Below, piece by piece: positions 907-41,511 of a DNA stretch of 64,000 nt. The position numbers were made by a program, and so were the translations under genes. Source of the DNA: Chromatiales bacterium (GTDB lineage: Bacteria > Pseudomonadota > Gammaproteobacteria > JAGRCI01); NCBI GenBank assembly GCA_020445565.1, contig JAGRGI010000031.1, positions 19,419-83,418 of the forward strand. The letters are read 5' to 3'. Every line of letters begins with the position of its first letter. Position 1 is the first letter of the stretch. The notes below the pieces were generated by a model that was given only the letters and a program-made list of their open reading frames with translations, made no database searches and was not told where the DNA came from.

Positions 907-1097
907 TGAGTACTGCTTGGTCTAAAATCAGTGATCGTTTCTGTCTACGCGCGTCGTTTAACCGCATGCTCTTCCGCAACATCCGCACAAGGCACATGGC
1001 TCAGCAGAACCGATTCGGGCACGAGGGCCGCATGTGCAGCACCGCGCCCGGATCGGGACGGCTCAAGCCAGCCCCGAGTCCGGGGAGATACCACGGA

Positions 1098-2469: not shown

Positions 2470-2470
2470 A

Positions 2471-3007: not shown

Positions 3008-3026
3008 GGCATTCTTGTTCTGTTTC

Positions 3027-11937: not shown

Positions 11938-13857
11938 GTGAGCGCGGAAGTCGCCAAGGCCAAGCAGGAATTCTGGCGGATTCCGTCGATCACCATCGCG
12001 GTGCTGATGGTGATCCACCTGCTGCCAAAGGCACAGATGCAAGCCAATCTGCGCCTGCTGCTGACGCTGGCCCTGTTCGCTGCACTTTTCATCCTGTTGT
12101 GGAGCATGACGGCGCCACGAGAGCGTTACATGGAACGGCTCTACGCGTGGCGCTATGAGGACGCAGGGCCGGCCTTGGAAAAGTCCTGGCGCCTCTACCT
12201 GCATTCGCTCACCCGTGTGATCCGAATCGTCGCGGTGATTCTGGCGACCTTCCTGGCCACCACCGCACTCAAGACGCTCAGCCTTTGGCCAAGCTTTTCG
12301 TCGTTTTCTCTCCTGGCCCCCGTGTACCAGGGGCTCTGGTGGCTATCCGTGGCGGCCCTGGGCCTGTTTCCCTTCGTTGCCGGCGGCCTGGTGGCCGAAG
12401 CCATGCAGCGGGGACGCTTGTTGCGCGAACAGGTGGCGACGTCAGACTTCGAGCCCCGCAAAGACCTGCCGACCAACGAGGAGGCGGCGGCCCAGTCCGC
12501 TCGCGCCCCTGTGGAGGCCGTGAACGATAGCCGCTTCCTCGCCGGCAACTTCGAATGGTCCTGGGAAGACTTCTACAAGAACTGCATCGTCTTCGGACAG
12601 GCCGGAACCGGCAAGACGGTCTGTGTGCTCAATGCCCTCCTGGACGGACTGCTGCTTTCGAGCCAACTGTCCAGCCATCAACCCAGTTGCCTGATGCTGG
12701 ACCCCAAGGGGGATTTCCACGCCAAAATCCAGAACCTGACGCGACTGCGTGGACGCGAGGCAGACCTGCTTCGTTTGGACCCCACGGACCTGGAACACAG
12801 CATTCGCTGGAACCCGCTGGACAGCGACGACGATGAACTGGAACTGGCCGGCCGTTTCGCGGCTGTCATGGAGGCCCTGGGAATGAAGTCCGACAACGAT
12901 TCCTTTTGGGTGGACTCGGCAAAGAAATTCATTCGCCACGCCATTGCCCTGATCCGTCTCACCAATCCGCCGGGGGAACCCCCCTCCTTCGAACAGATCA
13001 ACGCCATGGCGTCCAGTTTCGGCCCAATCTCGGAACGGGCGGACCGTCTGGCCGACGATGACCCGAGAGGCGACCGATGTCTGGCCTATTTCGCCGACGA
13101 GTGGGCCAATCTCGCCGACGAGACCCGCTCCAGCATCCAGGCCAACATCACCAACATGATCGACCCCTTCCTGCTGGCGCCCTACGATACCTTGTTCTCG
13201 GGACGTTCCACCGTGCGTATCGCCGACGTAGTGGACCGGGGAAAGCTGCTCTACGTCTATATGCCCATTGCCGACAAGGAGGTCATGGCGCGCATGGTCT
13301 GCACCTTCATCAAGATGGAGTATTACCGCGAGGTGCTCAAACGCCCGGACAAGAAACGACCCAGTTTCTTCTTCTGTGACGAGTTCCAATCATTCTTCAC
13401 GGTCAGCCAGGGCAAGGGCGACGCCGATTTCTTTGAACGTTCGCGCCAGAGCCGCCACGCCAATATCATCGCCACGCAGAACCTCAATGCCCTCACCAAG
13501 CAGACCCGCGAAAAGGATCCGGTGTTCAACCTGCTGGGCAACTGTGCCGTGAAGATCTTCCTGCGCAATACCGACCGGGACACCAACGAGTACGCCTCCA
13601 ATCTGTTCGGCGAACAACTGGTTGCCATGCTGAGCCAGAGCCTCAGCAGCCACGGAAAGGGTCTGGGCGGCGGCGGTGGGGGCGGCAGCCAGGGCGCCAA
13701 CCTGCAGTATGATGCCAAGGTGCGGAAGGAGGTGTTTACCGAGTTGGCCGTACCCTCGCGGGACGACGGCACCGACTATTGTGAAACCGTCATTCACTTG
13801 GCTTCACGGGGTCGGGTGGCGAAGCTGAAGCAACGTTGGCGGGTATATCCGCTATGA
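11938..13857 (+). CDS. Membrane-anchored type IV coupling protein-like ATPase (TraD/TraG/VirD4 family, FtsK-HerA superfamily)
   Basis: 639 aa, GTG start, about 4-5 N-terminal TM helices. Walker A is IVFGQAGTGKT. The sequence continues LMLDPKGDF, WNPLD and Walker B FFFCDEFQSFF. The T4CP C-terminal block reads SRHANIIATQNLNALTKQT...NCAVKIFLRNTDRDTNEYASNLFGE. The tail is Gly-rich. Confidence 0.8.
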   Translation: MSAEVAKAKQEFWRIPSITIAVLMVIHLLPKAQMQANLRLLLTLALFAALFILLWSMTAPRERYMERLYAWRYEDAGPALEKSWRLYLHSLTRVIRIVAVILATFLATTALKTLSLWPSFSSFSLLAPVYQGLWWLSVAALGLFPFVAGGLVAEAMQRGRLLREQVATSDFEPRKDLPTNEEAAAQSARAPVEAVNDSRFLAGNFEWSWEDFYKNCIVFGQAGTGKTVCVLNALLDGLLLSSQLSSHQPSCLMLDPKGDFHAKIQNLTRLRGREADLLRLDPTDLEHSIRWNPLDSDDDELELAGRFAAVMEALGMKSDNDSFWVDSAKKFIRHAIALIRLTNPPGEPPSFEQINAMASSFGPISERADRLADDDPRGDRCLAYFADEWANLADETRSSIQANITNMIDPFLLAPYDTLFSGRSTVRIADVVDRGKLLYVYMPIADKEVMARMVCTFIKMEYYREVLKRPDKKRPSFFFCDEFQSFFTVSQGKGDADFFERSRQSRHANIIATQNLNALTKQTREKDPVFNLLGNCAVKIFLRNTDRDTNEYASNLFGEQLVAMLSQSLSSHGKGLGGGGGGGSQGANLQYDAKVRKEVFTELAVPSRDDGTDYCETVIHLASRGRVAKLKQRWRVYPL

Positions 13858-16767: not shown

Positions 16768-17613
16768 ATGATGTTATTTACACGAACAACCGCTTTGCTC
16801 ATGCTTCTTTTTACTTGCTTCGCGTCATTGCCATCTCTGGCACAGGATTCGGCCCCCGTGTCCGTTACGGTTGACCTGTTTCTGAGCGACGGAAGCAATC
16901 TCACGCAGCGGGAGCTGCTGGGAATAGACAGCGGAATGCTGCTGGTAAAAGGCAAATACGGCAACCAGCAGATTCCGCTCACCGATGTACGTCAAATCGT
17001 CATGGCTGGCGGCAGCCAGGGCCGCAAGGGCGTACAGCTTCGATTCGGACAGATCGGCGCAACGGTCAAGGAGATGAAGAACGGGCGTTGGTTTTTCGAG
17101 CTACAGGACGAAGCCGGCACGCTTGCCGTCATGGACGCCTCCCAGGTCCTTTCCGTCAACGTTACCGAACCTCGCATCAATAGCGAGAACCTCGACGTAC
17201 GGTCGATCAATGTTCTGCAGTGGATCAGCGATCACAAGCCCTTCGGCAAGGAGGGTAACTGGGACATGGACGTGCGCGAAGTGAATATCGCCGAAAACAT
17301 GATCGTCGTGAGCGCGGACGTGTGGAGCGACGACCAGGGGATCCTGAATTCGCGAGGCTGCTTCCTGGCCTGCCGCATCCAGGACAACCAGGGCCGGATA
17401 TCCGAACTGGTATGGACGGAGATTTTCAAGGTGCCACCCAAGGTGGACACCTATCGCCTGCAGATACGCTGCCCGGTCCCCCCCGCCAGCGCCCGCTCCG
17501 CTTCGATTCAGCTACGTACCGGCGATGACGGCGATTACGCGGGCCGCAGGGAAGATAGGTGTACGGGCAATCAGTGGCGGTCGCTCCCCGCCATAAATAT
17601 GAACCTGCTTTGA
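16768..17613 (+). CDS. Secreted hypothetical protein, paralogue 1 (281 aa)
   Basis: Signal peptide MMLFTRTTALLMLLFTCFASLPSLAQD. Collinear similarity to the next gene. Confidence 0.7.
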   Translation: MMLFTRTTALLMLLFTCFASLPSLAQDSAPVSVTVDLFLSDGSNLTQRELLGIDSGMLLVKGKYGNQQIPLTDVRQIVMAGGSQGRKGVQLRFGQIGATVKEMKNGRWFFELQDEAGTLAVMDASQVLSVNVTEPRINSENLDVRSINVLQWISDHKPFGKEGNWDMDVREVNIAENMIVVSADVWSDDQGILNSRGCFLACRIQDNQGRISELVWTEIFKVPPKVDTYRLQIRCPVPPASARSASIQLRTGDDGDYAGRREDRCTGNQWRSLPAINMNLL

Positions 17614-17707: not shown

Positions 17708-18553
17708 GTGCATATCCAACTCAAAAAGATAATGACTATCCCATGCCTTACCCTGAGCCTGTTTGCCACCCCGTGGGCCACCGCGGACAACACGCCGGTC
17801 ACCGCCACGATCAATCTGCGCTCGGGCGATGCTATCAATGACGTAGAGATCCGTGCCATCAGCAACGGCGTAGCGCTGCTCAAGGGGCCCTATGGCACCT
17901 TGCAGGTTCCACTACAGGATGTCGCCAATGTCGTCTTTCCTGGCGGCGACGCTTCACAGCCGGGCGTGGTGCTGGATACGGGTGGTTACAACGCAGAACT
18001 CAAGGAGATGAAAAACGACAACTGGTCGTTTTCCCTGCGGGATGTGGATGGTGGCTTCACCTTGCCGAGTGCCGCGCGCCTGCGATCGATCAATCTGGAG
18101 AAGGCAGGCGCATCCAGCACCGCTGCCTCTTCCACCCCGCTGAGCTCGAAAGGATGCAACGTCAAGGAATGGACTTACGCCTACGAACCCTTCGGCAACA
18201 GCAACTGGAACTTCAAGATTGAAAAACTCGCCGCCATAGGGCCCGAGCTTGTGCTTCAGGCCCAAGGCAGCAGCCGTGACGGTAGAGTACGACGCGCAGG
18301 CTGCGTCATCACCTGCAAAACTGTTGACGAAAAGGGCCGGGAAAGCACGGAACTGGTCAACGACAGAGCCCGAGTAGACATCAAGCCGGCGGGCATCAAC
18401 GTGCGCTGTCCTTTACCGGCTGACGATACCCAGTCCTTCACCCTCTATCTGCGCACCGGCGAGGCCGGCAACAAGGAATCCGGCGACTACTGCGAAGGCG
18501 ACGACTGGAGGCCACTGCCCACGATCAACACCCAACTGCTTTCCAGTCAGTGA
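17708..18553 (+). CDS. Secreted hypothetical protein, paralogue 2 (281 aa from GTG 17708; ATG alternative at 17732)
   Basis: Signal peptide MTIPCLTLSLFATPWATADN. Blocks shared with paralogue 1: V(T/S)xxxxLxxG, LLKGPYGTLQVPLQDV matching LLVKGKYGNQQIPLTDV, AELKEMKNDNWSF matching ATVKEMKNGRWFF, and C-terminal DDWRPLPTINTQLL matching NQWRSLPAINMNLL. Confidence 0.7.
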   Translation: MHIQLKKIMTIPCLTLSLFATPWATADNTPVTATINLRSGDAINDVEIRAISNGVALLKGPYGTLQVPLQDVANVVFPGGDASQPGVVLDTGGYNAELKEMKNDNWSFSLRDVDGGFTLPSAARLRSINLEKAGASSTAASSTPLSSKGCNVKEWTYAYEPFGNSNWNFKIEKLAAIGPELVLQAQGSSRDGRVRRAGCVITCKTVDEKGRESTELVNDRARVDIKPAGINVRCPLPADDTQSFTLYLRTGEAGNKESGDYCEGDDWRPLPTINTQLLSSQ

Positions 18554-18558
18554 TAAGG

Positions 18559-18603
18559 TTCCGGAAAAGCCGACTGTTGTACGACGTCGGCACCGATCCG
18601 GAA
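18559..18603. terminator. Possible bidirectional hairpin between convergent genes
   Basis: TTCCGGA (18559-18565) pairs with TCCGGAA (18597-18603). An inner GCCGAC/GTCGGC stem is also present. There is no U-tract, so this is weak. Confidence 0.25.
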
Positions 18604-18612
18604 ACTTCATTG

Positions 18613-21510
18613 CTACAGACAACTTCCTTCGCGAATCTTGATCTCGACCGCCGGACCGGCCTGCTTGCCGGCGTTCACTACGCTGATTCGCAGGTCGCCG
18701 TCCTTGCCGCCGGGCAGATCCACAGACCACCAGGTGCGGTCGGTCAGTCCCGCCTGGGTCCACTTTCCCGCGCGCTGCGCCTCGATTCGATAAGCGGAAA
18801 AATCACAGGATTCCAAGGCCGACCAGTCCAGAAACGCCTGACCTCCGAAGACCTTACACTGGACCCCTTGTACGGGTCCCAACAGTCCAAAAATTCGGGC
18901 ACCGACGATTTTCGACAACTGGCCTGCCCGATCATCGCCGTCCAGGGCACGTATGCTGTAATAGTTGGTCTTGCACGGCAGCGGTTGCGCATCGACCCAC
19001 TCGCCGCCCTGCACCACTGCCACGCGCTGCGTCTCGTCCGGCGTCAGTTCCAGGTCGGAGCGATAGACTGCGAAGCGTGCATCGGTATTTTCCGCAACGC
19101 CCCAACGCAGCGTAACGGATTTATCGCCGGGCGTGGCCCGCAGGCTACCGACCGCCGCCGGTGGCATTTGATAATTTACGTCCGGAGAGATCGCCTCGCC
19201 ACCGCCGTCCACCTTCGCGACGATCCGGTAGCGGTAGCGATGTCCATATTGCAAGCCACGATCGACAAATCGCGTTTCCTGCTGTTCGGCGATCTTGCGG
19301 GCTTCAGCACCGTCGTCGGAGCGCAGGATGTCATAGCCTCGCAACAGCTTGCGACTACCCTCCACCGACCAGCTCAGACTGACCTCGCCCGGTGACATCC
19401 AGGCCGGTTCAGCCTTGGGGGCGCTGACCACGACCTTCGGCGCGGGAAGTAAGAACCGCGCAGACGGACTGGATTTGTCCTCCCTGCCGTCGACCAAGGT
19501 CGGAATCACCTTGTATTCGTAGTCGGCGGCAAACTTCACCGTGTCATCCATGTAGACAAAGCCATTGCCGGTCTCTACCCGGTCCCTGCTCAAACGGATC
19601 TTGCGCGGTGCCTGTCCGTCTTCACTGCGGATCACGGTAAAAAAATCCACTGCTTGCGGATTACCCTTGCCGTTCCACTTCACCACGGCAGTGCGGGTGT
19701 TTTCATCGAGGGGGCTGGTCTGGAGTTCGCTCAAGGCAAAGCTCGGCGCCTCGAGTTTCAGCTTGGCGAGCGGACTGAAGTCGCCGAGTTTGTCGTTCAA
19801 TTGAACGGCGGCGACACGGTAGGTGTACGCCACGCCGTAGTCCGCGTCCTTGTCCACGTAGACGGTCCCATTGGGGACCGACGCAATGCGCTTCTCCTTG
19901 CCATTCTCCTGGGTGCGAAAAATGGAAAATGACTTGACCGCCCTCGGGTCGCCGCGCCCCTGCCAGGCGAGTTGTACCTCCTTGGCGAAACGGGGCCCCG
20001 CCGTGGCCGTCAGCGAGGTGACCGGAAACAGCGGCACTGGCAGGCTGGCGGCGACCGGAATGCTGGACACCTCATCCTGCCCGACCCTAGCCGTGACCCG
20101 GTAGCGATATGCGACGCCATACTCTGCCGAGGAATCGGTGTATCGCTGGTCGCGAGTGGTCGCGATGGGCTTGAAGGCGCCTCCATCCGACCGTTCGACC
20201 ACATATTCGCCTCGAAAACCGTTGTTCAAGGACTGCCAGCCGAGTTCCACGACCTTTCGCGCCGACTGCACTTCCGCCTGCAGGACAGGCGGTATTAGCA
20301 CTACCGTGGGCAACGGACGCGACGCTACGGGAGGAATCGGATTAGGCGCCGCGGGTACTGGCGGCGTTGCCGGCACCGGGTTGGCGCTGGGCGTCGTGGC
20401 AGATGCGGACGTTTGGGTCTGTGTCGGAGGCGTGGACTGGACAGTAATGGGAACATTCGTTTGTCCGTCATCGCGGCTGACAAAATAAACGCCCGCTGCC
20501 AGAAGGACTCCGATCAATCCCCAGGTGGTTGCGGAATAGCGCTTGCGGACAGCACCACCCTGTTCGGCTCCCCCCTGACGCTGAGAATAGGATTCGGAGC
20601 CTACCGCTGCTCCGCCCTGAGACTCGGTACCAACGTCTGCCGTGGTCGGGCCGGATGACCAAGCCCCCAAAGTGTCACCTCCCCCGCCCAGGTGTCGGGA
20701 AAGTTCGGCCGCGGTGGGGCGCCGCTCGGGATCGGGGTTGAGCATACGCTCCAGATCGACGGCGATTTCACGATCCAGGCGGGGTGGGATCTGCGGAATC
20801 ACTTCCCGTGAACGAACCAGATCATAGAGGCTGGAGGGCATGAGATTGGCTGGATCGTTCGGATCCTCGGCACAGTTGAGCAGCACCAGACCGAGACTGT
20901 AGATGTCCGACTTCTCGCCGATCACTGCCTCGCTACGCAATTGTTCCGGCGAGGCAAAGGCTGCCTTGAGCGGCCGGCCGGCCTCCACGAACACGGTCTT
21001 TTGATCGACCCGTAACTGTGTGGCGATTCCAAAATCGATGAGTTTCGCCTGCGCCGGATCTCCATCGGGCAGAATGATGTTGTCGGGTGCGATATCCCGG
21101 TGCACCACGCCTTTGGCGTGGCAGGCACTAAGCCCGCTGAGCAGGCGCCGCTCCAGCACGGCGATGGAATCGTTGGAAAGCGGCCCCTGTTCCAGAAGTC
21201 CCGACAACGGTACTCCCTGGACATAGTCCATTACCAGGCAATAGCTGTTGAGGGCCTCATCGCGTTTGTACTGATAGAACGCCACCACGGCGTCGTGGCG
21301 CACCGCCAGCAGGGCCTGGGCCTCGCGCTTGAACTGGGCAGCGAAACGCGGATCGCCGCCATAATTCGCGGCCACCACCTTGACGGCGAACTGTCTATCG
21401 TCCAACTCCGGGTCACTCACCAGATAGACGACGCCCATCCCGCCACGGCCGAGTTCGCGCACCACCGAATAGTGACCGAGCAGTCGGGTACCCGGACGTA
21501 TCGCCACCAT
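18613..21510 (-). CDS. Hanks-type Ser/Thr protein kinase with TM helix and six Fn3-like extracytoplasmic repeats
   Basis: The likely start is MVAIRPG (ATG 21510), not the ORF-track start at 21684. Kinase motifs: GRGGMGVVY, FAVKV, HRDIAPDNIIL, DFGIA, SPEQ. TM segment WGLIGVLLAAGVYFV, then a Pro/Thr linker. Six roughly 90-aa repeats each end in a YxYRV/YKV-type strand (YGVAYRYRVTA, YGVAYTYRVAA, ADYEYKVIP, YGHRYRYRIVA, NYYSIRAL, LRISVVNA). Confidence 0.85.
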   Translation of the reverse strand: MVAIRPGTRLLGHYSVVRELGRGGMGVVYLVSDPELDDRQFAVKVVAANYGGDPRFAAQFKREAQALLAVRHDAVVAFYQYKRDEALNSYCLVMDYVQGVPLSGLLEQGPLSNDSIAVLERRLLSGLSACHAKGVVHRDIAPDNIILPDGDPAQAKLIDFGIATQLRVDQKTVFVEAGRPLKAAFASPEQLRSEAVIGEKSDIYSLGLVLLNCAEDPNDPANLMPSSLYDLVRSREVIPQIPPRLDREIAVDLERMLNPDPERRPTAAELSRHLGGGGDTLGAWSSGPTTADVGTESQGGAAVGSESYSQRQGGAEQGGAVRKRYSATTWGLIGVLLAAGVYFVSRDDGQTNVPITVQSTPPTQTQTSASATTPSANPVPATPPVPAAPNPIPPVASRPLPTVVLIPPVLQAEVQSARKVVELGWQSLNNGFRGEYVVERSDGGAFKPIATTRDQRYTDSSAEYGVAYRYRVTARVGQDEVSSIPVAASLPVPLFPVTSLTATAGPRFAKEVQLAWQGRGDPRAVKSFSIFRTQENGKEKRIASVPNGTVYVDKDADYGVAYTYRVAAVQLNDKLGDFSPLAKLKLEAPSFALSELQTSPLDENTRTAVVKWNGKGNPQAVDFFTVIRSEDGQAPRKIRLSRDRVETGNGFVYMDDTVKFAADYEYKVIPTLVDGREDKSSPSARFLLPAPKVVVSAPKAEPAWMSPGEVSLSWSVEGSRKLLRGYDILRSDDGAEARKIAEQQETRFVDRGLQYGHRYRYRIVAKVDGGGEAISPDVNYQMPPAAVGSLRATPGDKSVTLRWGVAENTDARFAVYRSDLELTPDETQRVAVVQGGEWVDAQPLPCKTNYYSIRALDGDDRAGQLSKIVGARIFGLLGPVQGVQCKVFGGQAFLDWSALESCDFSAYRIEAQRAGKWTQAGLTDRTWWSVDLPGGKDGDLRISVVNAGKQAGPAVEIKIREGSCL

Positions 21511-21766
21511 CGAAACGTCAGTAGTCAATGCAACCTCAAGAGCGCTGGATCGGATCGAAGTGCAGACCCCACGAATCTGCTCGCTTGACGCGCGCAAACC
21601 AGGGCGTTTCGGAGGTAGATTAGGTACTCTCCGACAGGGATGCAACCGCCTCGAAATTGGTTCTGCTCCGACACCACCTGTCACTGATTACGGTCGACAG
21701 TGACTCGTTCGTTCTCGGCAAATGCCAGCAGCTGCTGACAAGCAATAGGTATATGCATCCATCCAC

Positions 21767-22957
21767 CTACGGACTTTCCCTGGCAGTCTCCTCGATATCC
21801 AGCCGAACTCGCGGACCGGTGAGGAAGTTGTTTCTGATGAGCTCCGGGTCCGCCAGTGCGGAATAGGCGAATTCCAGGCCGTGACAATCCAGGCACACGC
21901 CTTGCCCCATGCGCCGAGTCGGGCGCAGGTTGGCGCTTTGGTTGTGCTCGACATGGCCGTCTCGACGATGCGGCAGATGACAGCTTGCGCAGGTGACGGG
22001 AGGTTTTGCCTTGGCGTGGGGTGACTCGGCCCAGGCCAGGGTATGGGCGTCGTTGTGGCAGCGGGTACAAGTTTGCGTGCCTCGGTCCGGCGGTTCCTGA
22101 TGCGCGCCGTGACAGGCAGCGCAATCGGGATGGCGCTCGGCTTCGTCCGCGCGGAAATCGCCCCTACCCTCGCCCACAGTAATCGCCTCTGCCCTTACCA
22201 AAGTGGCCATGCCGTGACGTCCGTTTTGCCAGCCTTCCTGGGCATCGGCGTGGCAACCACCACAAGTCGACCAAGGTTTCTCTCCAGAGACATGGCAGCG
22301 TTCGCAAACCAGCTCGGCGTGTGGCCCGTTCTGCCAGGCCGCGACTATCGGCTCCGGCGCATCGGGCGGTGGCGGCAAGGAATGTTTCGTTGCAAGCTGC
22401 GGTGCCACATCAGGGGCACGCTTGTCGATCAGATCCGGTTCGCCGAGGTGCGCGCGCAGAAACTCGCCGCTGCCGGGGCGATTGTCGTGGTAGGCATGAC
22501 ATTCGACGCAGCGAAAAAAATCCCGCCCGGTGTGGCTGGGACGATCGCTGCCCACGTCACGGTGGCAGAGTATGCAGAAATCGCCTGGACGGCTGAGTCC
22601 GCCGGCGTCGGTGTGCTCGGCACGATGCTCGCGATGGCAGTCGTCACAGTCACCGGCGAGCGCTAACTGTCCGGCCTTCTTCAACACCTCAGCGGCGTGG
22701 CTGTCCTTGGCTTGGACCAGGAACTCGCCATGGCAGCCCAGACAGGCATCAGTGGTGCCGCCGAAGGGGCGATGACAAAGCCCGCAGCGGTCGATGATCT
22801 GGTGATGACCATCGCTGGCCGGGCCGGCCGTCCAGAAACCTGGCAAGGCGCGAATTCCCATCCATAGCAACAAGGCCGCCACGAGTATGGCGCTCGAGAC
22901 CAAGCCGATGGCACGGGCGTGGGTCCACAGCCACAACCAGAGTCGGTCGATGTTCAC
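21767..22957 (-). CDS. Membrane-anchored multihaem cytochrome c (11 CxxCH)
   Basis: Haem motifs: CGLCH, CLGCH, CDDCH, CILCH, CVECH, CERCH, CGGCH, CAACH, CTRCH, CASCH, CLDCH. N-terminal TM IGLVSSAILVAALLLW. The proposed GTG start at 22957 overlaps the upstream TGA (22954-22956) as GTGA. The ORF-track start at 23056 lies inside the upstream gene. Confidence 0.85.
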   Translation of the reverse strand: MNIDRLWLWLWTHARAIGLVSSAILVAALLLWMGIRALPGFWTAGPASDGHHQIIDRCGLCHRPFGGTTDACLGCHGEFLVQAKDSHAAEVLKKAGQLALAGDCDDCHREHRAEHTDAGGLSRPGDFCILCHRDVGSDRPSHTGRDFFRCVECHAYHDNRPGSGEFLRAHLGEPDLIDKRAPDVAPQLATKHSLPPPPDAPEPIVAAWQNGPHAELVCERCHVSGEKPWSTCGGCHADAQEGWQNGRHGMATLVRAEAITVGEGRGDFRADEAERHPDCAACHGAHQEPPDRGTQTCTRCHNDAHTLAWAESPHAKAKPPVTCASCHLPHRRDGHVEHNQSANLRPTRRMGQGVCLDCHGLEFAYSALADPELIRNNFLTGPRVRLDIEETARESP

Positions 22958-25476
22958 GAGAAGTAGTAGACGCTGGCCACATGGGACATCAGCAACACCG
23001 CGAAGGGCCAGCTCAGCAAGGCATGCAAGCGGCGCAGATGCTCCCTGGGAAGCCAATCAACTGCGGCGACGGCCCCGCTGACCACCAGCAGATACAACGC
23101 CCCCGAAAGCAGTGTTGTCATGGGAGCACCGAGCGAAAGCCCGCCATGGACGGCCAGCAGCAGCAATGCCGCCGTTCCTATGATCAGGTGTACATCGGTC
23201 CAGCGCGCCAAACTCCCAGGCGTGGGCCAGCCCAGGCGTTTTTTGGCCGATAACAACTGCCCCACCAACAGCAGGGCCAACAAGAGATAACCGCTCGATT
23301 GCTTGCCATCCGGGTCGGTCCACAACCAGGACAATGAGCCTCCCGGCTCCGTCTGCGCCGGCCAGGACCAGGCGGGCGCCAGGGCGATCCAGGCCAGCAG
23401 CAAGACCGCGAGCCCCGACAGACCCCATTGCCAAGGCGTGACGGTTTGCCTATGCAACCGGCCCTGCGCCGGGGTAAAGGCCTCCACGTGCACTCTGGCT
23501 GGATCTACGCCCGCCAGACTCAAGGCTTCGCACACCTGGGTCTGATAAGCGGCCGGTCCGCAGACCAGGATCTCCGCGTCAGGGCAGGCCTGGAGCAGAG
23601 ACTCGATACCCTGTGAGTCCAGGCGACCCTGACGTGACACCTCGCGGATCTCGACATGAACCCCAGGCCGCGCCGATGCCGCCCGCAGCTCCTCGGCACA
23701 AACGATGTCTGCCGATTGGCGAACCGAGTAGTCCAGATAAAACCGACGCCGTTCGGACCAATCTCCCGTGCGTAGCAAGGCCAGGGCCGGTGTCACGCCG
23801 ATTCCCGCCACCAGGCAGAGCCAAGAGCGTTGCCCTGCGGGCAGTTTGAAGCCACCCCTGGGCACGGATACGCGAACGGCATCACCAACGCGGGCCTGAT
23901 CATGAACCCAGGCGGAAAACCGCCCGCCCTGCTCGCGCTTGACCATGATCTCGTAGCCAGTGTCGCTGCCAGCCGTGAGGGTGTAACTACGCTCCAGCCG
24001 TTCCCCATCGACATGGGCCGCCACGCGAATATGCTGCCCCGGCTCGAAGGCGTTGGCGGAGCCGTCGATGGGCATGAGTCCCACTCGCCGAACCTCGGCG
24101 GTGAGCGGTTCCAAGGCATGAATACGGCAGAACTCGCGATCCGCTGGTCCGGCCAACTCTTCGAGCAAGGGGGTGCAACCGCCGCAGATCAGGGAGGCGC
24201 CGCTACGGTCCACCAGGCACTCCAGATCCCTGCATTCACTCTCTAATAGTTCAAGCAACTGGCCACGACTGCGACCGGTGCACTGGCAGACTATCGCTGC
24301 CATGCCGGAACCGACCTCGCGACGGTGCAACCTTAACTCCCCTCGGAGGCGAAACAGGGCACGCTGCCAGGGCCAGAGTCGCCGTTCTTGAATAACGGCA
24401 GAGAAGGCAAATCCCAGGTCCCGCCACGGTCCTGCCACGGCAAGTCCCACGAGACGGCCGCCGACAAGATGCAAGCTGCGCCGGAAACCGCCATCCCCAC
24501 TGAAAGTCTCTTGCTGGGCGACAGACCTGGACTCGACGTTCAGACGGGCAAGGTTGAAAATCGCCTCATCCGGAATTCGAGAGGCGGCAAATCGGCGACC
24601 ATCGGCCAGCACATAAAGGGCGGTAATCGTGTCCTTGCCGTCGATCCGGCCCTTGTGCAGGCTGACGGTTGCCTGATCGGACAGCGCATAGAAGGCGCTG
24701 AGCTGTTCCACCAGGTCCCGCAGACCCGGATTGGATTGGTAGGCTTGCAGGAATCTGCCGCCATCGATTACCAGCAGCTGCAATTCCGATTCGGCAATCA
24801 CGCTGGCGGCGCGGGGTTCGGTACGGATCAGGGCCCGCTCCCCAAAGAAACTTCCGGCACTCAAACGGCCCAGCACCTGTTTTTGGCCGCCGTTCGCGCG
24901 TTCCACCCGCGCCATTCCGGCCAACACCAGAAAGACATCCGAGCCCGTTTCGCCCTGGGTGATGACCGTCTCGCCATCCACGTAGCTGCGCTGTTCGGGA
25001 AGCTGCAAGGCTTCGCCCATGTTGCTCAGCAGCACGGACTGACGCCAGAGTCGTTCTTGAGCCTGGCTGTTGGCACGCTCGTCCAAGACCTCGTTCAGAG
25101 CAGGCATGGCGGCAAGCAAGCCGTGAAAGGCGGCGGCGGGGATCTCCGCGACACCGACCTCGGTCAGGGCGCGGACGCTGGCGTTGCGGCGATTGGCACG
25201 GCCCGGAATCAGGGCCTGTTCGCCAAAGACACGGCCCGGCCCCAGTCGAGCGACTTCTGTCTCACCGCCAACCGGGTCGGTAACGAATACCGAGACCGTG
25301 CCGCTCAGCATCACAAAACACGATTCTCCGGAATCGCCCTCGCGCAGGATCTTCTGGCGCGGCAGGTAATCCACCCGCCGTGCCGATGCGGCCAGACGCG
25401 CCAACTCGCCCCTGGCCGCCCCCTTGAACAAGGAAACCCCGCGCAGCACCTCCAGCAGATCGCCGTTGGCCGCCAC
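22954..25476 (-). CDS. Fusion protein: 2x cNMP-binding + uncharacterised middle region + BFD-like [2Fe-2S] + FNR-like FAD/NAD(P) module + C-terminal dihaem-type membrane domain
   Basis: 840 aa, GTG start. Phosphate-binding cassettes: FGEQALIPGRANRRNASVRA and FFGERALIRTEPRAASVIA. The Cys cluster is CQCTGRSRGQL...LICGGCTPLL. FNR motifs: RSYTL, GGRFS, VAGIGVTPALA, LVCGP. Five predicted C-terminal TM helices follow. Confidence 0.8.
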   Translation of the reverse strand: MAANGDLLEVLRGVSLFKGAARGELARLAASARRVDYLPRQKILREGDSGESCFVMLSGTVSVFVTDPVGGETEVARLGPGRVFGEQALIPGRANRRNASVRALTEVGVAEIPAAAFHGLLAAMPALNEVLDERANSQAQERLWRQSVLLSNMGEALQLPEQRSYVDGETVITQGETGSDVFLVLAGMARVERANGGQKQVLGRLSAGSFFGERALIRTEPRAASVIAESELQLLVIDGGRFLQAYQSNPGLRDLVEQLSAFYALSDQATVSLHKGRIDGKDTITALYVLADGRRFAASRIPDEAIFNLARLNVESRSVAQQETFSGDGGFRRSLHLVGGRLVGLAVAGPWRDLGFAFSAVIQERRLWPWQRALFRLRGELRLHRREVGSGMAAIVCQCTGRSRGQLLELLESECRDLECLVDRSGASLICGGCTPLLEELAGPADREFCRIHALEPLTAEVRRVGLMPIDGSANAFEPGQHIRVAAHVDGERLERSYTLTAGSDTGYEIMVKREQGGRFSAWVHDQARVGDAVRVSVPRGGFKLPAGQRSWLCLVAGIGVTPALALLRTGDWSERRRFYLDYSVRQSADIVCAEELRAASARPGVHVEIREVSRQGRLDSQGIESLLQACPDAEILVCGPAAYQTQVCEALSLAGVDPARVHVEAFTPAQGRLHRQTVTPWQWGLSGLAVLLLAWIALAPAWSWPAQTEPGGSLSWLWTDPDGKQSSGYLLLALLLVGQLLSAKKRLGWPTPGSLARWTDVHLIIGTAALLLLAVHGGLSLGAPMTTLLSGALYLLVVSGAVAAVDWLPREHLRRLHALLSWPFAVLLMSHVASVYYFS
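22981..23190 (-). other. Two transmembrane helices each carrying an H-x13-H pair (bis-His haem b ligand pattern)
   Basis: VHLIIGTAALLLLAVH (His codons at 23188-23190 and 23146-23148) and LHALLSWPFAVLLMSH (His codons at 23023-23025 and 22981-22983). I checked these codons directly in the DNA. Confidence 0.6.
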
Positions 25477-25488
25477 GGGGAGGCTCGC

Positions 25489-27531
25489 CTAATCTTCGTC
25501 CTTGGCGACGTAACGTTGCATCAATTCCCGCTGCACGTTGGGCGGAGCCGGTTCGTAATGGTCGAACTGCATGGAATAGGACCCGGCTCCACCGGTAAAG
25601 GACTTGAGCCGTGCCGCGAAATTTTCCAGTTCAGCCAATGGCGCTTCGGCGCCTATGACCATCTGACCGGCGGCATTGGTGTCGGTCTGGTTGATACGGC
25701 CTCGGCGCTGGGACAGATCGCCTGTGATGTCGCCCACGGCGGAATCCGGCGCATTCACTTCCATGCGCACGATGGGCTCCAGCAGTGCCGCGCCGGCATT
25801 GGCGATGGCATCCATGAAAGCCTTGCGGCCGGCCACCACAAAGGCGATCTCCTTGGAATCGACCGAGTGGTGCTTGCCGTCGGTGACCACCACGCGCAGA
25901 TCCACCAACGGATAACCCGCCACGGCGCCGGTCTCCAGCAACTGGCGGATGCCTTTCTCCACCGCAGGGATGAACTGGCCGGGTATGGCGCCGCCGGTGA
26001 CCCTGTCCACGAACTCGAAACCGCCGCCACGTTCCATCGGCTCGACCTTGAGGAAGACCTCGCCAAACTGGCCGGCACCGCCGGTCTGTTTCTTGTGCCG
26101 GTAATGACCCTCCGCCGGGCGGGTGATGGTCTCGCGGTAGGGAATGCTCGGTGGATGCGTGGCGACACGCACGTGGTAGCGGTCATCCATCTTCTCCAGT
26201 GCCACGCGCAGATGAAAATCGCCCAGGCCGCGCAACACCGTCTCGTTGGCGGCGATATCGTGCTCGATGCGCAGGCAGGGGTCCTCGGCGACGATCTTGT
26301 GCAGTACGTCGGAGACCTTCTGCTCGTCGCCCCGGCTTTCGGCCTCCAGGGCCACACCCACCAAAGGCGTGGGATACTCCATGGGCTCGGCACGCAGATC
26401 GTCTTCGTCATGGTTGCCGTGCAGGATGGCGTCCTGGTGCAGATCCTCGACCTTGGCCACGGCACAGATGTCACCGGGTATGGCCTTGTTCATCTCGTAG
26501 TGTTCCTTGCCCTGGATGCGAAACAGATGGGCCACCTTGAAGGAGTGGGCGCCGTCGTCGATCAACAACTGGCTGCCCTTGTTCACCACACCACGGTGCA
26601 CACGCATCAGGCCCATCTTGCCGACGAAGGGGTCGTATTCCACCTTGAAGACATGGGCCAGTACCGGCTTGTCCTCATCCGGCGTCGCCAGCAGGCGCTC
26701 GGCCTTGTCGCCCTTGCCGCGCACGAACACATGAGGCGTACCCTCCAGCGGATTCGGCGCGAGATTTGAAAAGACCTCCAGCAACTCCTGCACGCCGGCG
26801 CCTGAAGCGGCGGAGACGAAACAGACCGGAATCAGATGCCCTTCGCGCAGGGCCTGTTCAAAAGGGGCGTGCAGCTGGCGAGGGTCTACATCGCCCTCAT
26901 CCAGATACTTTTCCATCAAGTCCTCGTCGACCTCCACCACTTGATCCATCAACGCGGTATGCGCATCGCCGACCGAGGAAAAATCCGCCTCGCCGCTGTC
27001 CTTGGCGAAACAATCCAGCACCTGGGTGGCCTTCCCTGCCGGCAGGTTCACCGGCAGACACTCGCCGCCGAAGTGGGATTGAAGGTCCAGAAGCACGCTC
27101 TCCAGGCCGGCAACATTGGCATCGATGTGGTTGACGATGAGCATACAGGCCATGCCATGGTCGCGAACCACTTGCATCATACGGCGGGTAACGGTCTCGA
27201 TGCCGGACTGGGCGTTGACGACGATGGCGACAGTCTCCACCGCCGGCAGGGCCGCCAGGGCACGACCGATGAAATCCGGGTCTCCGGGAGTATCCACCAA
27301 GTTGATGTGGCAGTCCTTCAGGTCAATGCTCTCCACCGTGGCATTGAGGGAATGCAGATAGCGTTTTTCCAGGGGGTCGAAGTCTGAAACGGTATCGCCC
27401 TTCTCCACCGAACCGGCATTGGGAAGACTGCCGGAGGCGTAGAGCAGGGCCTCCACCAGGGTCGTCTTGCCGCTACCGGACTGACCTACCAGGGCGATAT
27501 TGCGAATATCCGCGGTGCTGTAGCTGGGCAT
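25489..27531 (-). CDS. Divergent EF-G-like translational GTPase paralogue
   Basis: 680 aa with EF-G domain order. The G motifs deviate: G1 is GQSGSGKTT where the canonical motif is AHxDxGKTT, G3 is DTPGDPDF where it is DTPGHVDF, and G4 is NHID where it is NKxD. The stop lies 12 nt before the next gene. Confidence 0.8.
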   Translation of the reverse strand: MPSYSTADIRNIALVGQSGSGKTTLVEALLYASGSLPNAGSVEKGDTVSDFDPLEKRYLHSLNATVESIDLKDCHINLVDTPGDPDFIGRALAALPAVETVAIVVNAQSGIETVTRRMMQVVRDHGMACMLIVNHIDANVAGLESVLLDLQSHFGGECLPVNLPAGKATQVLDCFAKDSGEADFSSVGDAHTALMDQVVEVDEDLMEKYLDEGDVDPRQLHAPFEQALREGHLIPVCFVSAASGAGVQELLEVFSNLAPNPLEGTPHVFVRGKGDKAERLLATPDEDKPVLAHVFKVEYDPFVGKMGLMRVHRGVVNKGSQLLIDDGAHSFKVAHLFRIQGKEHYEMNKAIPGDICAVAKVEDLHQDAILHGNHDEDDLRAEPMEYPTPLVGVALEAESRGDEQKVSDVLHKIVAEDPCLRIEHDIAANETVLRGLGDFHLRVALEKMDDRYHVRVATHPPSIPYRETITRPAEGHYRHKKQTGGAGQFGEVFLKVEPMERGGGFEFVDRVTGGAIPGQFIPAVEKGIRQLLETGAVAGYPLVDLRVVVTDGKHHSVDSKEIAFVVAGRKAFMDAIANAGAALLEPIVRMEVNAPDSAVGDITGDLSQRRGRINQTDTNAAGQMVIGAEAPLAELENFAARLKSFTGGAGSYSMQFDHYEPAPPNVQRELMQRYVAKDED

Positions 27532-27647
27532 GGGTCCTCACAGGGGGCAGGAGAAGAAAAAAGCGGTTGCGAGGTAGTGTAGGATCAATTGGCCGGAGCT
27601 GGGGGGAACCGGGATCAAATTCGGCGATGCTTGCGCCTCTTTGCCAC

Positions 27648-28937
27648 TTAGCATCCGTGCACGCGGTTTCTGCCTTCGACCTTGGCCCGATAGAGCGCCT
27701 GATCGGCATTGCGTATCATCTCGTGCAGATCCGAATGCCAATTCATGCACACGCCGATACTACAGGTCACCCGAATCTGTTCACCGCGAAAGTGGATACT
27801 CTGGCGTTCAATGCGGGCACGGACCCGGTTGAACACCTTGATGGCGCGTTCGCCCTGCAGATTCGGCGACAACACGCAGAATTCCTCTCCACCCATACGG
27901 GCAACGATATCCGCTTCGCGAAACGACTGCTGCAGAACCATGGCCACGTGTTGCAGGACCTGGTCTCCTCCATCGTGACCGTAGCGGTCGTTGATACCCT
28001 TGAAATGGTCCAGATCCAGGACCGCCGCGCTCAGGCCGATATTGCCCCGCCGGGCATTGGCGAGCAGCGTCTTGCCCACCTCGAACAGGTAGCGACGGTT
28101 GTATAGCCGGGTGAGGTAGTCCCGATTCGCGCTGTCCCGTATGGTCTGGATCTGCTCCAACAAATCAATGTTCTGATTGATTCGGCAAATGAATTCCTCG
28201 GCCTCGAAGGGTTTGGCGAGAAAGTCGTTCGCCCCCGCCTTTAACAATTGCACGGAGAGCTGCTTGCCATCTTCGCCGGACAGGCCGATCACCGCCAGAT
28301 CATTGCGGCCGCGTTTCTTGCGTATGGCGAAGGTCAGTTCCTGACCATTCATGTGCGGCATGTGGTAATCGGTCACCACGATGCGGATGGACGGATGGAT
28401 GTCCAGAATCTCCAGGGCCTTTTGGCCATTCTCGGCTTCGTAGACGCGGTAGCCCTGTATTTCCAGCAAGCGACGCAGATAACCTCTGGCGGAGGCGGCG
28501 TCGTCCACCACCAATACCCCGATGGTACCGGCGTGGTAGCGCCTGGTAATGGCACGAACCACGTAGTCCAGCTCAGAGGCATTGTGTTTGATGACGTAGT
28601 CCAGCACCGGCTTGGCAAGCACCTGCTCGCGCGCACGGTCGCTCAGATTACCGGTCACCACCAGGACGGGAATCCCCAGGTCCAACACATGATCTACCAC
28701 CTCGCCATCCGGGGCATCGGGGAGATTGAGATCGAGAACGGCGCAAAAGACTTCGTCCCGCTCCTGCGCCAGAATGACCCTTGCCTTCGCCAACGTGTCG
28801 GCGCTGATGACGCGAAAATCGCTTTCTTCAAGGATCTTGGCGGTCAGCAGGTCGACGATGGCACGATTGTCGTCAACCAACAGTACGGCATCGTTCCGAG
28901 CTTCGCTCCTGGCAATGGAAGAAACCGTAGCCTGCAT
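27648..28937 (-). CDS. PleD-like diguanylate cyclase (REC-REC-GGDEF)
   Basis: The likely start is MQATVSS (ATG 28937). There are two receiver domains (VLLVDDN...VLDLNLPD; VLVVDDA...VTDYHMP), active site GGEEF, and I-site READ five residues upstream. Confidence 0.85.
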   Translation of the reverse strand: MQATVSSIARSEARNDAVLLVDDNRAIVDLLTAKILEESDFRVISADTLAKARVILAQERDEVFCAVLDLNLPDAPDGEVVDHVLDLGIPVLVVTGNLSDRAREQVLAKPVLDYVIKHNASELDYVVRAITRRYHAGTIGVLVVDDAASARGYLRRLLEIQGYRVYEAENGQKALEILDIHPSIRIVVTDYHMPHMNGQELTFAIRKKRGRNDLAVIGLSGEDGKQLSVQLLKAGANDFLAKPFEAEEFICRINQNIDLLEQIQTIRDSANRDYLTRLYNRRYLFEVGKTLLANARRGNIGLSAAVLDLDHFKGINDRYGHDGGDQVLQHVAMVLQQSFREADIVARMGGEEFCVLSPNLQGERAIKVFNRVRARIERQSIHFRGEQIRVTCSIGVCMNWHSDLHEMIRNADQALYRAKVEGRNRVHGC

Positions 28938-37917: not shown

Positions 37918-38241
37918 GAATCACTCCTCCTTTGCTTGTTTTCCGAATCGTTCTAGCGTCGAAACCAGGCCAAGTGCCGGCTTCGGGATGCGGTTCGATC
38001 AGGACAAGGCAGGGACTCAACGTAGGTCCGGTGCAAGTCAATTCCGACCGACGGAACCGTGCCCGGAATAACGCTGTTGTGTCGCGTTCCCTTGCCCGTC
38101 CTGTTTCACCGTTGTTACGAATCCCATAAATGCGTGGATGCAAATTCCCGACGAACGGTTGCCTCGCCAAGTACGCCGGCAACATTCGACCTCAGAGTTC
38201 TGCGCTACTATTTCCGTGAAATCGCTATGGGAGTACGTTCC

Positions 38242-40624: not shown

Positions 40625-41032
40625 TCAGTCCCCATTCACCGCCCTGTCCTCCCGGTCGCTAGCATGCATCCGGTGGATCAGTTCGGCTTCGGAGCGGGTC
40701 AGATTGCAGTTGGTGATCAGGTCTTCCACGCTGGCCCCGCCTTGCACCATACGGATGGCCGGACCGTAGGGCTGAGTGGCGTCGCTGACCTGTGTGAGGC
40801 GATCCTGCCCGTCGCGCAGTTCGCGCAGATGGGTTTCCATGCGTACCACCCGGCCGCCCATGTTCATGCTGCCGTTGGTGAGGCCGGACAGAGCCTGTTC
40901 GAGATGGGCGAGACGTCGATTGAGGGCAAGATTGCCGTTTTCGAGACTGCGAATCCGTTTGCGCCAATGCCTGGCCATCACTGCGAACACAGCGGCAAGG
41001 AGCACAAGTGCAATGGCCAGGGCAATCGTCAT
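40625..41032 (-). CDS. DUF2802-like small membrane protein (flagellar/che cluster associated)
   Basis: 135 aa from ATG 41032 (MTIALAIALVLLAAVFAV...). It occupies the position downstream of cheW, as in Pseudomonas-type clusters. The 281-aa ORF-track version overlaps cheW. Confidence 0.6.
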   Translation of the reverse strand: MTIALAIALVLLAAVFAVMARHWRKRIRSLENGNLALNRRLAHLEQALSGLTNGSMNMGGRVVRMETHLRELRDGQDRLTQVSDATQPYGPAIRMVQGGASVEDLITNCNLTRSEAELIHRMHASDREDRAVNGD

Positions 41033-41034
41033 TC

Positions 41035-41511
41035 CTAGAACATACTCATTTCGCCCCACTCGTCTTCGGTGAGGAGCTTGTTCAGATCCACGAGAATCAG
41101 CAGTTGGTTTTTCTGACTGCTGACACCCTGAATATAGCGCGAGCTTTCTTCGTTGCCGACATTCGGCGTAGTCTCGATCTGAGAGCTGGGCAGCTCCTGC
41201 ACCTCGGCAACACTGTCCACCAGGATACCGATGACCTGTTGATCGGACTCGATGATGACGATACGGCTGGAATCGTCCACATCCCTTGGCGGCAGACCGA
41301 AGCGGCTGCGGGTGTCGATCACGGTGACCACGTTGCCGCGCAGATTGATGATGCCCAGTACATAAGCCGGCGCGCCGGGCACCGGCGCGATCTCCGTGAC
41401 CCGCAACACCTCCTGCACCTGCATCACGTTGATACCGTAGGTCTCGTCGTCCAGGCGAAAGGTTACCCATTGGCTGATGGGGTCGTTGGCCGCTTCTACC
41501 TTTGCACTCAT
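41035..41511 (-). CDS. cheW: Chemotaxis coupling protein CheW
   Basis: 158 aa. Reads QWVTFRLDDETYGINVMQVQEVLR...GIINLRGNVVTVID. Confidence 0.9.
   Translation of the reverse strand: MSAKVEAANDPISQWVTFRLDDETYGINVMQVQEVLRVTEIAPVPGAPAYVLGIINLRGNVVTVIDTRSRFGLPPRDVDDSSRIVIIESDQQVIGILVDSVAEVQELPSSQIETTPNVGNEESSRYIQGVSSQKNQLLILVDLNKLLTEDEWGEMSMF

Follow-up and report, generated by a model that had tools for sequence, protein, structure and literature searches.

What is a cyclic-nucleotide-sensing reductase doing on the same polypeptide as a membrane domain with four conserved histidines, and why does the gene that follows it encode a cytochrome c with eleven haem sites? These questions are raised by a locus of two genes, here called ORF A and ORF B (ORF, open reading frame), on the minus strand of contig JAGRGI010000031.1 from a Chromatiales bacterium. 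The window that we analyzed is a stretch of 64,000 nucleotides of this contig. It is our view that ORF A and ORF B probably form an electron exporter of the inner membrane, regulated by cyclic nucleotides (cNMP), which would carry electrons from NAD(P)H to the periplasm and bypass the quinone pool. The locus is a minority variant of a widespread three-gene cassette composed of a Pyr_redox_2-BFD-dihaem membrane protein, an undecahaem cytochrome c and a Tll0287-like haem lipoprotein. The features that a preliminary description had listed for the two genes all lie where it had placed them, according to the ORF list, Pfam and direct reading of codons, and are as follows (FNR, ferredoxin-NADP reductase).

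22954..25476, minus strand: ORF A, predicted cNMP-regulated flavo-iron-sulfur-haem membrane reductase; 840 aa, GTG start, intact (ORF list, Pfam, six aligned full-length homologues)
25123..25398, minus strand: cNMP-binding domain 1, about residues 27-118 (Pfam cNMP_binding)
24730..24990, minus strand: cNMP-binding domain 2, residues 163-249 (best Pfam stretch, full profile covered; cassette FGERAL...PRAASV)
24307..24609, minus strand: beta-rich Rubredoxin_C-type linker, about residues 290-390 (profile homology to Pyr_redox_2-type relatives)
24154..24294, minus strand: BFD-like [2Fe-2S] domain, residues 395-441, with C397, C399, C431 and C434 (Pfam Fer2_BFD)
23467..24129, minus strand: FNR-type module, residues 450-670; FAD_binding_6 (RSYTLT, GGRFS) and NAD_binding_1 (GIGVTP, CGP, terminal E-x-F667)
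22957..23436, minus strand: C-terminal five-helix membrane domain, putative dihaem b cytochrome, residues 681-840 (AlphaFold2 model)
23146..23190, minus strand: helix 3 His pair H763...H777 (H-x13-H), codons read; 100% conserved, n=151
22981..23025, minus strand: helix 5 His pair H818...H832 (H-x13-H), codons read; 100% conserved, n=151
22954..22957, minus strand: GTGA overlap of the ORF A stop codon and the ORF B start codon, read directly in the DNA
21767..22957, minus strand: ORF B, membrane-anchored cytochrome c, 396 aa counted from the GTG at 22957, intact; 11 CxxCH and 11 further invariant His
22850..22918, minus strand: hydrophobic N terminus of ORF B (residues ~14-36), whose sequence suggests a signal anchor that is probably not cleaved

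The membrane domain carries two invariant histidine pairs

The four histidine codons of the membrane domain were read at 23190-23188, 23148-23146, 23025-23023 and 22983-22981, and the helices of the structural model agree with the earlier placement of one H-x13-H pair on helix 3 and another on helix 5. All four histidines are invariant in the close homologues (6/6), in the aligned sequences (63/63) and in the domain sequences drawn from 50%-identity cluster representatives (151/151), so that the objection foreseen in the preliminary description, a lack of conservation in homologues, does not hold. Also conserved are LRKR behind helix 2 (95-97%), a W-R that precedes the first His by three residues, an HTG that follows the second, and VYYF at the C terminus. 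A profile of six membrane domains, searched against 1.84 billion cluster representatives, matched 1070 proteins at E<=1e-3 and 134 at E<=1e-30. The preliminary description had presented the domain order of ORF A as permuted. The membrane domain does follow the dehydrogenase; this is no oddity, since the domain stands at the extreme C terminus in 158/158 proteins examined.

An AlphaFold2 model of the domain, computed from the 63-sequence alignment (pLDDT 92, pTM 0.86), shows five long helices, and an additional short one lies in the first outer loop. Helices 3 and 5, which carry the His pairs, are oriented alike in the model. H763 and H818, the first members of the pairs, each lie 7 residues into the helix, counted from its cytoplasmic end, and H777 and H832 lie 14 residues, or ~21 A, farther out. 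Helices 1, 3 and 5 would run from inside to outside because the FNR module must be cytoplasmic, and the Lys/Arg-rich loops (LRKR; the W-R before the first His) are on the FNR side, in agreement with the positive-inside rule. In the model the histidines are therefore found at two matching depths on parallel helices, and their register is that expected of two stacked bis-His haems, with a side-chain geometry that we infer.

The family to which the domain belongs is less easily named. When the 63 members were scanned singly against Pfam, DUF4405 was matched by 40 of them at E<=1 and by 6 at E<=1e-3 (best E 7.4e-7), Ni_hydr_CYTB by 21 and 2, Ferric_reduct by 11 and 3 (some at E 2e-4) and DUF4079 by 7 and 1. 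Most of the families matched, and every recurrent one, are families of dihaem-b membrane cytochromes, and we take DUF4405, Ni_hydr_CYTB, Ferric_reduct and DUF4079 to share one Pfam clan. For the window's own domain, DUF4405 (PF14358) gave E 0.05 and 14.5 bits (cut-off 26.7), Ferric_reduct (PF01794) E 0.22-0.31 and 11.6-12 bits (cut-off 28) and Ni_hydr_CYTB E 1.6. The earlier likening of the domain to the NOX/FRE ferric reductases is not borne out as family membership: Ferric_reduct falls below its cut-off, DUF4405 scores slightly better but is below its own, and neither the PDB profile search nor Foldseek returned a significant match. Membership in the NOX/FRD family is not demonstrable by these comparisons. 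The domain would be best placed as a distinct branch of the dihaem-b cytochrome superfamily, nearest to DUF4405. For one DUF4405 protein, haem b binding was shown after purification, and a role in electron transport through the cytoplasmic membrane was proposed (PMC11334425).

An undecahaem cytochrome is the constant neighbor

ORF A and ORF B share the four nucleotides GTGA, because the DNA at the junction reads ...TAC TTC TCG TGA in ORF A and GTG AAC ATC in the overlapping +1 frame. This overlap and the 11 CxxCH sites of the second gene, both noted before, were read in the sequence, and an identical 4-nt overlap is seen in locus L001, on the contig of the closest relative. A homologous cytochrome gene stands directly downstream of the reductase gene in 14/14 loci with enough downstream sequence (the window, L001, L002, L005, L006, L007, L009, L087 (L087/L088), L086, L089, L090, L091, L092 and L093), a co-occurrence drawn from sampled loci of which several are short metagenomic contigs. 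The other objection foreseen at the outset, a cytochrome gene usually absent beside homologues, does not hold in these loci. The gaps between the two genes range from -4 to +27 nt, with one of 194 nt. Loci L086, L089 and L090 among these are of the Pyr_redox_2 type. The contigs of L003 and L004 end 40 codons into an ORF that opens with the same kind of anchor. The reverse search, starting from the cytochrome alone in three loci chosen for their long contigs (L091-L093), gave the same result in 3/3: the gene just before the cytochrome gene is of the Pyr_redox_2-BFD kind and the one just after it is Tll0287-like. The gene order is kept with both types of reductase and in taxa labelled Thiomargarita, Methylomarinum, Polyangium and Bremerella. 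The Thiomargarita and Methylomarinum loci come from metagenome-assembled genomes; Polyangium and Bremerella are cultured carriers of the Pyr_redox_2 type, and none in culture was identified for the cNMP type.

ORF B contains exactly 11 CxxCH sites and matches Cytochrom_c3_2 in Pfam at 47.8 bits, as expected of multihaem cytochromes c of the c3/c7 packing type. Near its N terminus 20 hydrophobic residues follow one another without a small-x-small motif for cleavage. Nine aligned cytochromes are orthologous across both reductase types; the alignment has eleven haem sites, the fifth being a C-x4-CH variant in some partners of the Pyr_redox_2 type, and 11 further invariant histidines, which are enough for ligation that is bis-His throughout. 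The motifs CHNYHDN, GRHGM and VQHNQNxNLRP are conserved. The family comprises at least 519 clusters (90% identity) at E<=1e-20, and its members are named in databases only as 'cytochrome c3 family protein' or, occasionally, with automatic NrfA-type names. Matches of ORF B to the PDB are short and local, confined to haem packing, and its weak family matches in Pfam and NCBIfam include DmsE-type decahaem proteins, CctA and others. We read ORF B as a probable electron wire, not an enzyme.

Two other identities were considered for ORF B and rejected. An NrfA or octahaem-reductase enzyme, suggested by weak local matches in the PDB and Pfam, does not agree with eleven sites that are all CxxCH, each with a candidate invariant distal His, or with structural matches limited to short haem-packing motifs. 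A quinol dehydrogenase of the NapC/NirT/CymA kind would have 4 haems rather than 11, and no such Pfam or NCBIfam match was obtained.

The soluble half of ORF A

Pfam identifies two cNMP_binding domains (PF00027) in ORF A (E 1e-41, 141 bits over the two), and the tandem pair aligns with PDB sequences of the PKA regulatory subunit and of PKG at E 1e-18 to 1e-24. Both domains had been called canonical, with intact phosphate-binding cassettes. This is true of domain 2, whose cassette is the canonical FGERALIRTEPRAASV; in domain 1 the cassette reads FGEQALIPGRANRRNASV, which keeps the Gly-Glu and the Arg in a loop that is longer than usual.

The BFD-like domain (PF04324) has its ligand set in the form C-x-C...C-x2-C (C397-x-C399...C431-x2-C434), and Fer2_BFD scores 38-45 bits in the homologues. 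The FNR-like module matches FAD_binding_6 and NAD_binding_1 and contains all of the R-x-Y-T/S, G-x-x-S/T, G-x-G-x-x-P and C-G-P motifs; its NCBIfam matches are to flavohaemoprotein and to PaaE- and BenC-type reductases, and flavohaemoglobin 1gvh is a PDB match (E 7e-22). In six aligned full-length homologues (27-62% identity) the invariant positions include the four BFD cysteines, RSYTLT, GIGxTP, CGP and F667 as well as H763, H777, H818 and H832, so the cysteine and FNR motifs recorded at the outset are both present and conserved. A profile of residues 255-450 matches Pyr_redox_2-type proteins over their Rubredoxin_C and BFD region at E 1e-32 to 1e-41, and Rubredoxin_C is above the Pfam cut-off in one relative, P0141.

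The complete architecture of ORF A is rare: among 5.8 billion proteins we found five other full-length homologues, with 61, 34, 35, 33 and 28% identity. Further loci of the cNMP type, labelled Thiomargarita and Methylomarinum, came from scans of GTDB genomes and of cluster representatives. The regulatory module of the relatives consists of 1-3 cNMP domains or of EF-hands. The 951-aa protein P0192 has EF-hands in place of the cNMP domains, followed by BFD, FNR and a four-His membrane domain; it would be a Ca2+-sensing counterpart of ORF A, reminiscent of NOX5.

The module of cNMP domains or EF-hands, linker, BFD and FNR is also found fused to the oxygenase of nitric oxide synthase (NOS; P0009), to tryptophan 2,3-dioxygenase (P0007) and to PF09995 (P0010), all of which we take to be haem-dependent domains. 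The NOS of Sorangium with such a reductase is catalytically self-sufficient and has FAD and an Fe-S cluster, as summarized in PMC4436077, citing Agapie et al. 2009. Because that enzyme has the same architecture, the BFD-FNR module is an established supplier of electrons from NAD(P)H to haem.

A rare derivative of a widespread cassette

The usual carriers of the membrane domain are proteins of ~660-680 aa with the layout Pyr_redox_2, Rubredoxin_C, Fer2_BFD and membrane domain. Among the full-length proteins examined, 76 were of the Pyr_redox_2 type, 15 of the cNMP plus FNR type and 1 had FNR without cNMP, a count that is biased toward the cNMP type because the query profile was built from it. 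The cNMP type looks derived, because its linker and BFD domain (residues ~290-445) are homologous to the Rubredoxin_C and BFD domains of the Pyr_redox_2 type. A NirB-like flavoprotein looks to have been replaced by the sensors, and the FNR module to have been inserted between BFD and the membrane domain.

The third gene of the cassette, encoding a Tll0287-like protein, is present in 9/12 loci that extend far enough, a count that includes L007, whose third ORF was identified from its single CxxCH and the motif at its C terminus, not from a profile search; it is missing from the window, L001 and L087. Its products carry lipoprotein-type signal sequences and are of the Cys/His haem-c type. A tblastn search of the window found no stand-alone Tll0287-like gene near the locus. 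Its sole match, at 54606-55616 on the plus strand, ~30 kb from the locus, encodes 336 aa with a Tll0287-like haem-c Cache domain (E 1e-29), HAMP and one CxxCH. This protein is not of the stand-alone type found in the cassettes and is not counted as part of the system. According to PMC12889525, a 2026 preprint, the Tll0287-like plus HAMP combination is a signaling-type architecture linked to NO sensing, and redox roles have been proposed for stand-alone members. A term search of that preprint gave one mention of gene neighborhood, and an adjacent oxidoreductase was not among its results.

The claim that no described system has this architecture stands in the sense that we found no paper on it, but the architecture is a derivative of a common cassette and not a one-off. 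Searches of the literature on the themes of DUF4405, Tll0287, BFD/multihaem, quinone-independent NADH and cNMP/FNR yielded no description of the cassette.

Some loci depart from the common layout. The Tll0287-like gene is followed in L086 (10079-10800) and L092 (8143-9003) by a small mono-haem cytochrome c of the CBB3 type and a globin, and these neighbors hint at an O2- or NO-related role of the cassette. On the contig L012, from a metagenome-assembled genome, a 932-aa ORF (700-3495) fuses cNMP, BFD and FNR to a cytochrome segment with 5 CxxCH, and a separate 161-aa ORF downstream (4297-4779) has two H-x13-H pairs; this could be another wiring of the same parts or an artefact of assembly or frameshift. 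In L027 (6950-10234) a divergent 867-aa cNMP-BFD-FNR protein has a C-terminal domain with two H-x13-H pairs and a different ending, and the next gene encodes a short 5-haem cytochrome in place of the 11-haem one.

Comparison with known systems

As in the NOX and FRE enzymes, electrons from NAD(P)H in the cytosol would travel within a single polypeptide, ORF A, by way of FAD to a pair of bis-His b haems stacked across the membrane. The His pairs of those enzymes are on helices 3 and 5 with a spacing of 12-13 residues, and ORF A has the same placement with x13. Regulation by an N-terminal sensor is another likeness, given the EF-hands of NOX5 and the existence of an EF-hand relative of ORF A. 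However, the domain of ORF A lies below the PF01794 cut-off and has five helices rather than six. It is C-terminal, whereas in NOX/FRE the membrane domain is N-terminal and is followed by a FAD_binding_8/NAD_binding_6 dehydrogenase. ORF A has in addition a predicted [2Fe-2S] center and an FNR of another subfamily, and its proposed acceptor is a dedicated multihaem cytochrome c instead of O2 or Fe(III).

DUF4405 proteins (PF14358), to which FezC and the MsrQ-like and PepSY-like cytochromes are related (PMC11334425), share with ORF A four central, highly conserved histidines, and theirs is the Pfam family matched by the largest number of relatives of the membrane domain. The described members are stand-alone six-helix proteins tied to ApbE flavinylation and extracytosolic flavoproteins (PMC11334425), whereas the domain of ORF A has five helices, forms one polypeptide with a cytoplasmic NAD(P)H flavo-Fe-S reductase and is paired with a cytochrome c. 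No apbE gene is listed in the neighborhood tables of the loci looked up. The fusion, the five helices and the lack of an ApbE link set ORF A apart from a typical DUF4405 system.

The linker, BFD and FNR domains are homologous to those of the NOS of Sorangium cellulosum and Silicibacter; P0009 is 37% identical to ORF A over 41% of its length (E 4e-45), and the Sorangium loci L016, L019 and L023 are 34-37% identical (E 1e-48 to 1e-53). In these NOS proteins the reductase is N-terminal to the haem domain that it feeds, as in ORF A (PMC4436077, citing Agapie et al. 2009). The domain fed there is a soluble NOS oxygenase, in contrast to the putative membrane dihaem domain of ORF A, which would pass the electrons on.

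A precedent for the order with the dehydrogenase first is found in the STEAP metalloreductases, in which an N-terminal NADPH-binding dehydrogenase precedes a C-terminal haem membrane domain. They differ from ORF A in having an F420-type oxidoreductase fold, a single haem and FAD bridging the membrane face, and they are eukaryotic, with no Fe-S center and no cytochrome c partner. The outward-delivery logic of ORF A and ORF B can be likened to that of NOX, FRE, STEAP and Fre-MsrQ.

The proteins of the Pyr_redox_2-Rubredoxin_C-BFD-membrane-domain type have the linker, the BFD domain and the membrane domain in common with ORF A, and their genes stand in the same order next to that of an orthologous 11-haem cytochrome. 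They contain a flavoprotein of the NirB/rubredoxin-reductase type instead of cNMP and FNR, lack a second-messenger sensor and nearly always have the Tll0287-like third gene. Their annotation goes no further than 'FAD-dependent oxidoreductase' (WP_281314415.1 of Polyangium is one such entry), and no publication on them was found in the literature searched.

A hypothetical model for electron export and its alternatives

The model takes up the observed domain content, cofactor-ligand motifs, conservation, topology logic and synteny; in it we infer cofactor binding, the direction of electron flow, gating and the acceptor. Cytoplasmic NAD(P)H would reduce the FAD of the FNR module, and single electrons would then pass to the BFD-type [2Fe-2S] cluster and on to a haem b near the cytoplasmic face, held by H763 and H818. 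From there they would cross ~20 A of bilayer to a second haem b near the periplasmic face, held by H777 and H832, and finally reach the 11 bis-His c haems of membrane-anchored ORF B. The two N-terminal cNMP-binding domains would gate the reductase allosterically, and cAMP or cGMP would therefore decide the timing of the export of reducing power. Because outward electron flow dissipates the membrane potential, the system would be a delivery or valve device and not a coupling site for energy conservation. The path under cNMP control, as it had been proposed, has survived the computational checks that were run; the NOX/FRE label is not shown, and the architecture is not unique.

A bolder form of the model is put forward tentatively, as something that could well be true. 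In this form, the cassette would represent a widespread, undescribed class of exporters from NAD(P)H to a periplasmic undecahaem cytochrome without quinones; the cNMP and EF-hand variants would be switched by second messengers, as a bacterial counterpart of NOX5/DUOX, and the N-terminal helix of ORF B might be the sixth helix of the bundle.

Several results weigh against electron export under cNMP control. The window's membrane domain, scanned as the last 170 residues alone, passes no Pfam cut-off. A profile search of PDB sequences with the 63-sequence alignment gave zero matches. Foldseek with the membrane-domain model gave no PDB match at E<=0.001, with talin rod bundles on top. Fer2_BFD scores 22-24.6 bits in ORF A, just under its cut-off of 26; no nucleotide cyclase gene is found among the 25 neighboring ORFs scanned, which are a part of the 64-kb window; and the window and L001 are without the Tll0287-like third gene. 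The best relevant Foldseek matches were cytochrome b561 (TM 0.47) and a designed dihaem four-helix bundle (TM 0.66 on target), and no NOX entry is among the top 50 rows, in a comparison that separates all-helical membrane bundles poorly. Because nothing was significant, no family is drawn from Foldseek.

An alternative is that the locus is a redox-signaling device, which sets or reports the redox state of a periplasmic haem sensor, Tll0287-like or other, and so couples sensing in the periplasm to the second messengers and the NAD(P)H state of the cytoplasm. The exchangeability of the N-terminal sensors, cNMP domains or EF-hands, would fit such a role, as would the chemotaxis, GGDEF/EAL and globin genes near several loci. 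In the window a response regulator-GGDEF gene lies ~2 kb upstream of ORF A, beyond an EF-G-like gene, and a Ser/Thr kinase gene lies immediately downstream. The third-gene family otherwise serves, according to PMC12889525, as an input domain of kinases, methyl-accepting chemotaxis proteins and GGDEF proteins; yet the stand-alone proteins acted, in the same account, as redox proteins and not as gas sensors. Eleven c haems are a large outlay for a signal, none of the components is fused to an output domain, and the Tll0287-like gene is absent from the window and from L001. We consider a signaling role unlikely.

It is also conceivable that the protein is a true NOX-type oxidase, in which O2 is turned into periplasmic superoxide at the outer haem b or at the cytochrome, a regulated generator of reactive oxygen species like the Ca2+/EF-hand-controlled NOX5. 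As in NOX, the predicted chain leads from NAD(P)H over a flavin to two haems whose His pairs, spaced x13, lie on helices 3 and 5; the EF-hand variant P0192 exists, some relatives match Ferric_reduct at E 2e-4, and reduced Tll0287-like proteins yield superoxide with O2 (PMC12889525). A dedicated 11-haem partner in every one of the 14 loci favors hand-off to a protein over O2, however, and the failure at the FRD cut-off, the lack of a NOX structure in the leading Foldseek rows and a dehydrogenase of the FAD_binding_6/NAD_binding_1 rather than the FAD_binding_8/NAD_binding_6 kind make an oxidase distinctly improbable.

That the C-terminal domain is a mere membrane anchor or a non-haem binder, next to a functionally independent cytochrome, would accord with its failure to pass any curated family threshold and with the lack of a significant structural match. 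Against this, the four histidines are invariant throughout the 151 sequences and are spaced and positioned as in bis-His dihaem bundles, the gene order is strict across two reductase types and several taxa, and ORF A and ORF B are translationally coupled; we regard an anchor as very improbable.

Inward flow, in which the periplasmic cytochrome gathers external or periplasmic electrons and the flavoprotein reduces NAD(P)+ or another cytoplasmic acceptor, is hardly credible: FNR-type enzymes are reversible and relatives occur in sulfur oxidizers and methanotrophs, with Thiomargarita, Candidatus Parabeggiatoa, Chromatiales and Methylomarinum among the carriers, but on general bioenergetic reasoning the transfer would run against the membrane potential and uphill from typical bis-His haems to NAD(P)+ with no quinone or ion-channel coupling site visible, and the same module drives haem reduction in the NOS fusions.

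Genomic surroundings

The GC content is ~61%. A scan of 18400-27900 for promoters and terminators gave counts equal to the shuffled background. Ahead of ORF A, separated from it by 12 nt, is the gene of an EF-G-like GTPase paralogue of 680 aa (25489-27531, also on the minus strand). It is arranged likewise in L001, where it is 88% identical, compared with 61% for ORF A and 63% for ORF B, and it was not found adjoining the more distant homologues. On the other side, 82 nt beyond ORF B and likewise on the minus strand, a Ser/Thr protein kinase gene begins (18613-21684; 1023 aa with a transmembrane segment). The long C-terminal region of the kinase has one Pfam fibronectin-III domain and looks repetitive by eye. 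The kinase neighbor is not conserved in the other loci.

Elsewhere in the window, two tandem paralogous ORFs of 281 aa each (16768-17613 and 17708-18553, plus strand) have signal-peptide-like N termini and no Pfam match. Three more ORFs are of exactly 281 aa (864-1709, 40625-41470 and 61124-61969). Another 281-aa ORF (18550-19395), directly after the tandem pair and opposite in strand to the kinase gene that it overlaps, is probably spurious. Between 29036 and 37917 the minus strand carries a run of large ORFs that can hardly be assigned to families, if at all. Among them, those of 414 and 430 aa have no match, one encodes a GMC oxidoreductase, one of 493 aa matches DyP peroxidases weakly (E 3e-4 and 3e-3), and one of 838 aa has a CxxCH segment resembling cytochrome c. 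The run may be another cluster of oxidative or haem enzymes, unrelated to ORF A and ORF B. A DUF772 transposase (6727-7812), a TraG/VirD4-type coupling protein (11938-13857) and a Tle1-like phospholipase effector of the type VI secretion system (38059-40617), all on the plus strand, are also encoded, and some of this DNA may be mobile or may have arrived by horizontal transfer.

Significance of the cassette

The characterized feeds of periplasmic multihaem cytochromes, those of the CymA, ImcH, CbcL and NapC/NrfH types, draw to our knowledge on the quinol pool. If the model is true, a feed driven directly by NAD(P)H and independent of quinones would be new; as a redox valve, it would use up membrane potential in the export of low-potential electrons. 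The cassette is widespread and has apparently not been characterized. It is common in environmental bacteria, with the membrane domain in at least 1070 clusters at 50% identity, and assignment of its function would annotate many genes and give a partner to the stand-alone Tll0287-like haem proteins. No report of second-messenger control of a bacterial membrane electron-transfer chain was found in the literature searched. The version in the window would add direct control of electron flow by cAMP or cGMP, and there is a sister version with EF-hands; the proposition that a second messenger controls periplasmic redox thereby becomes directly testable.

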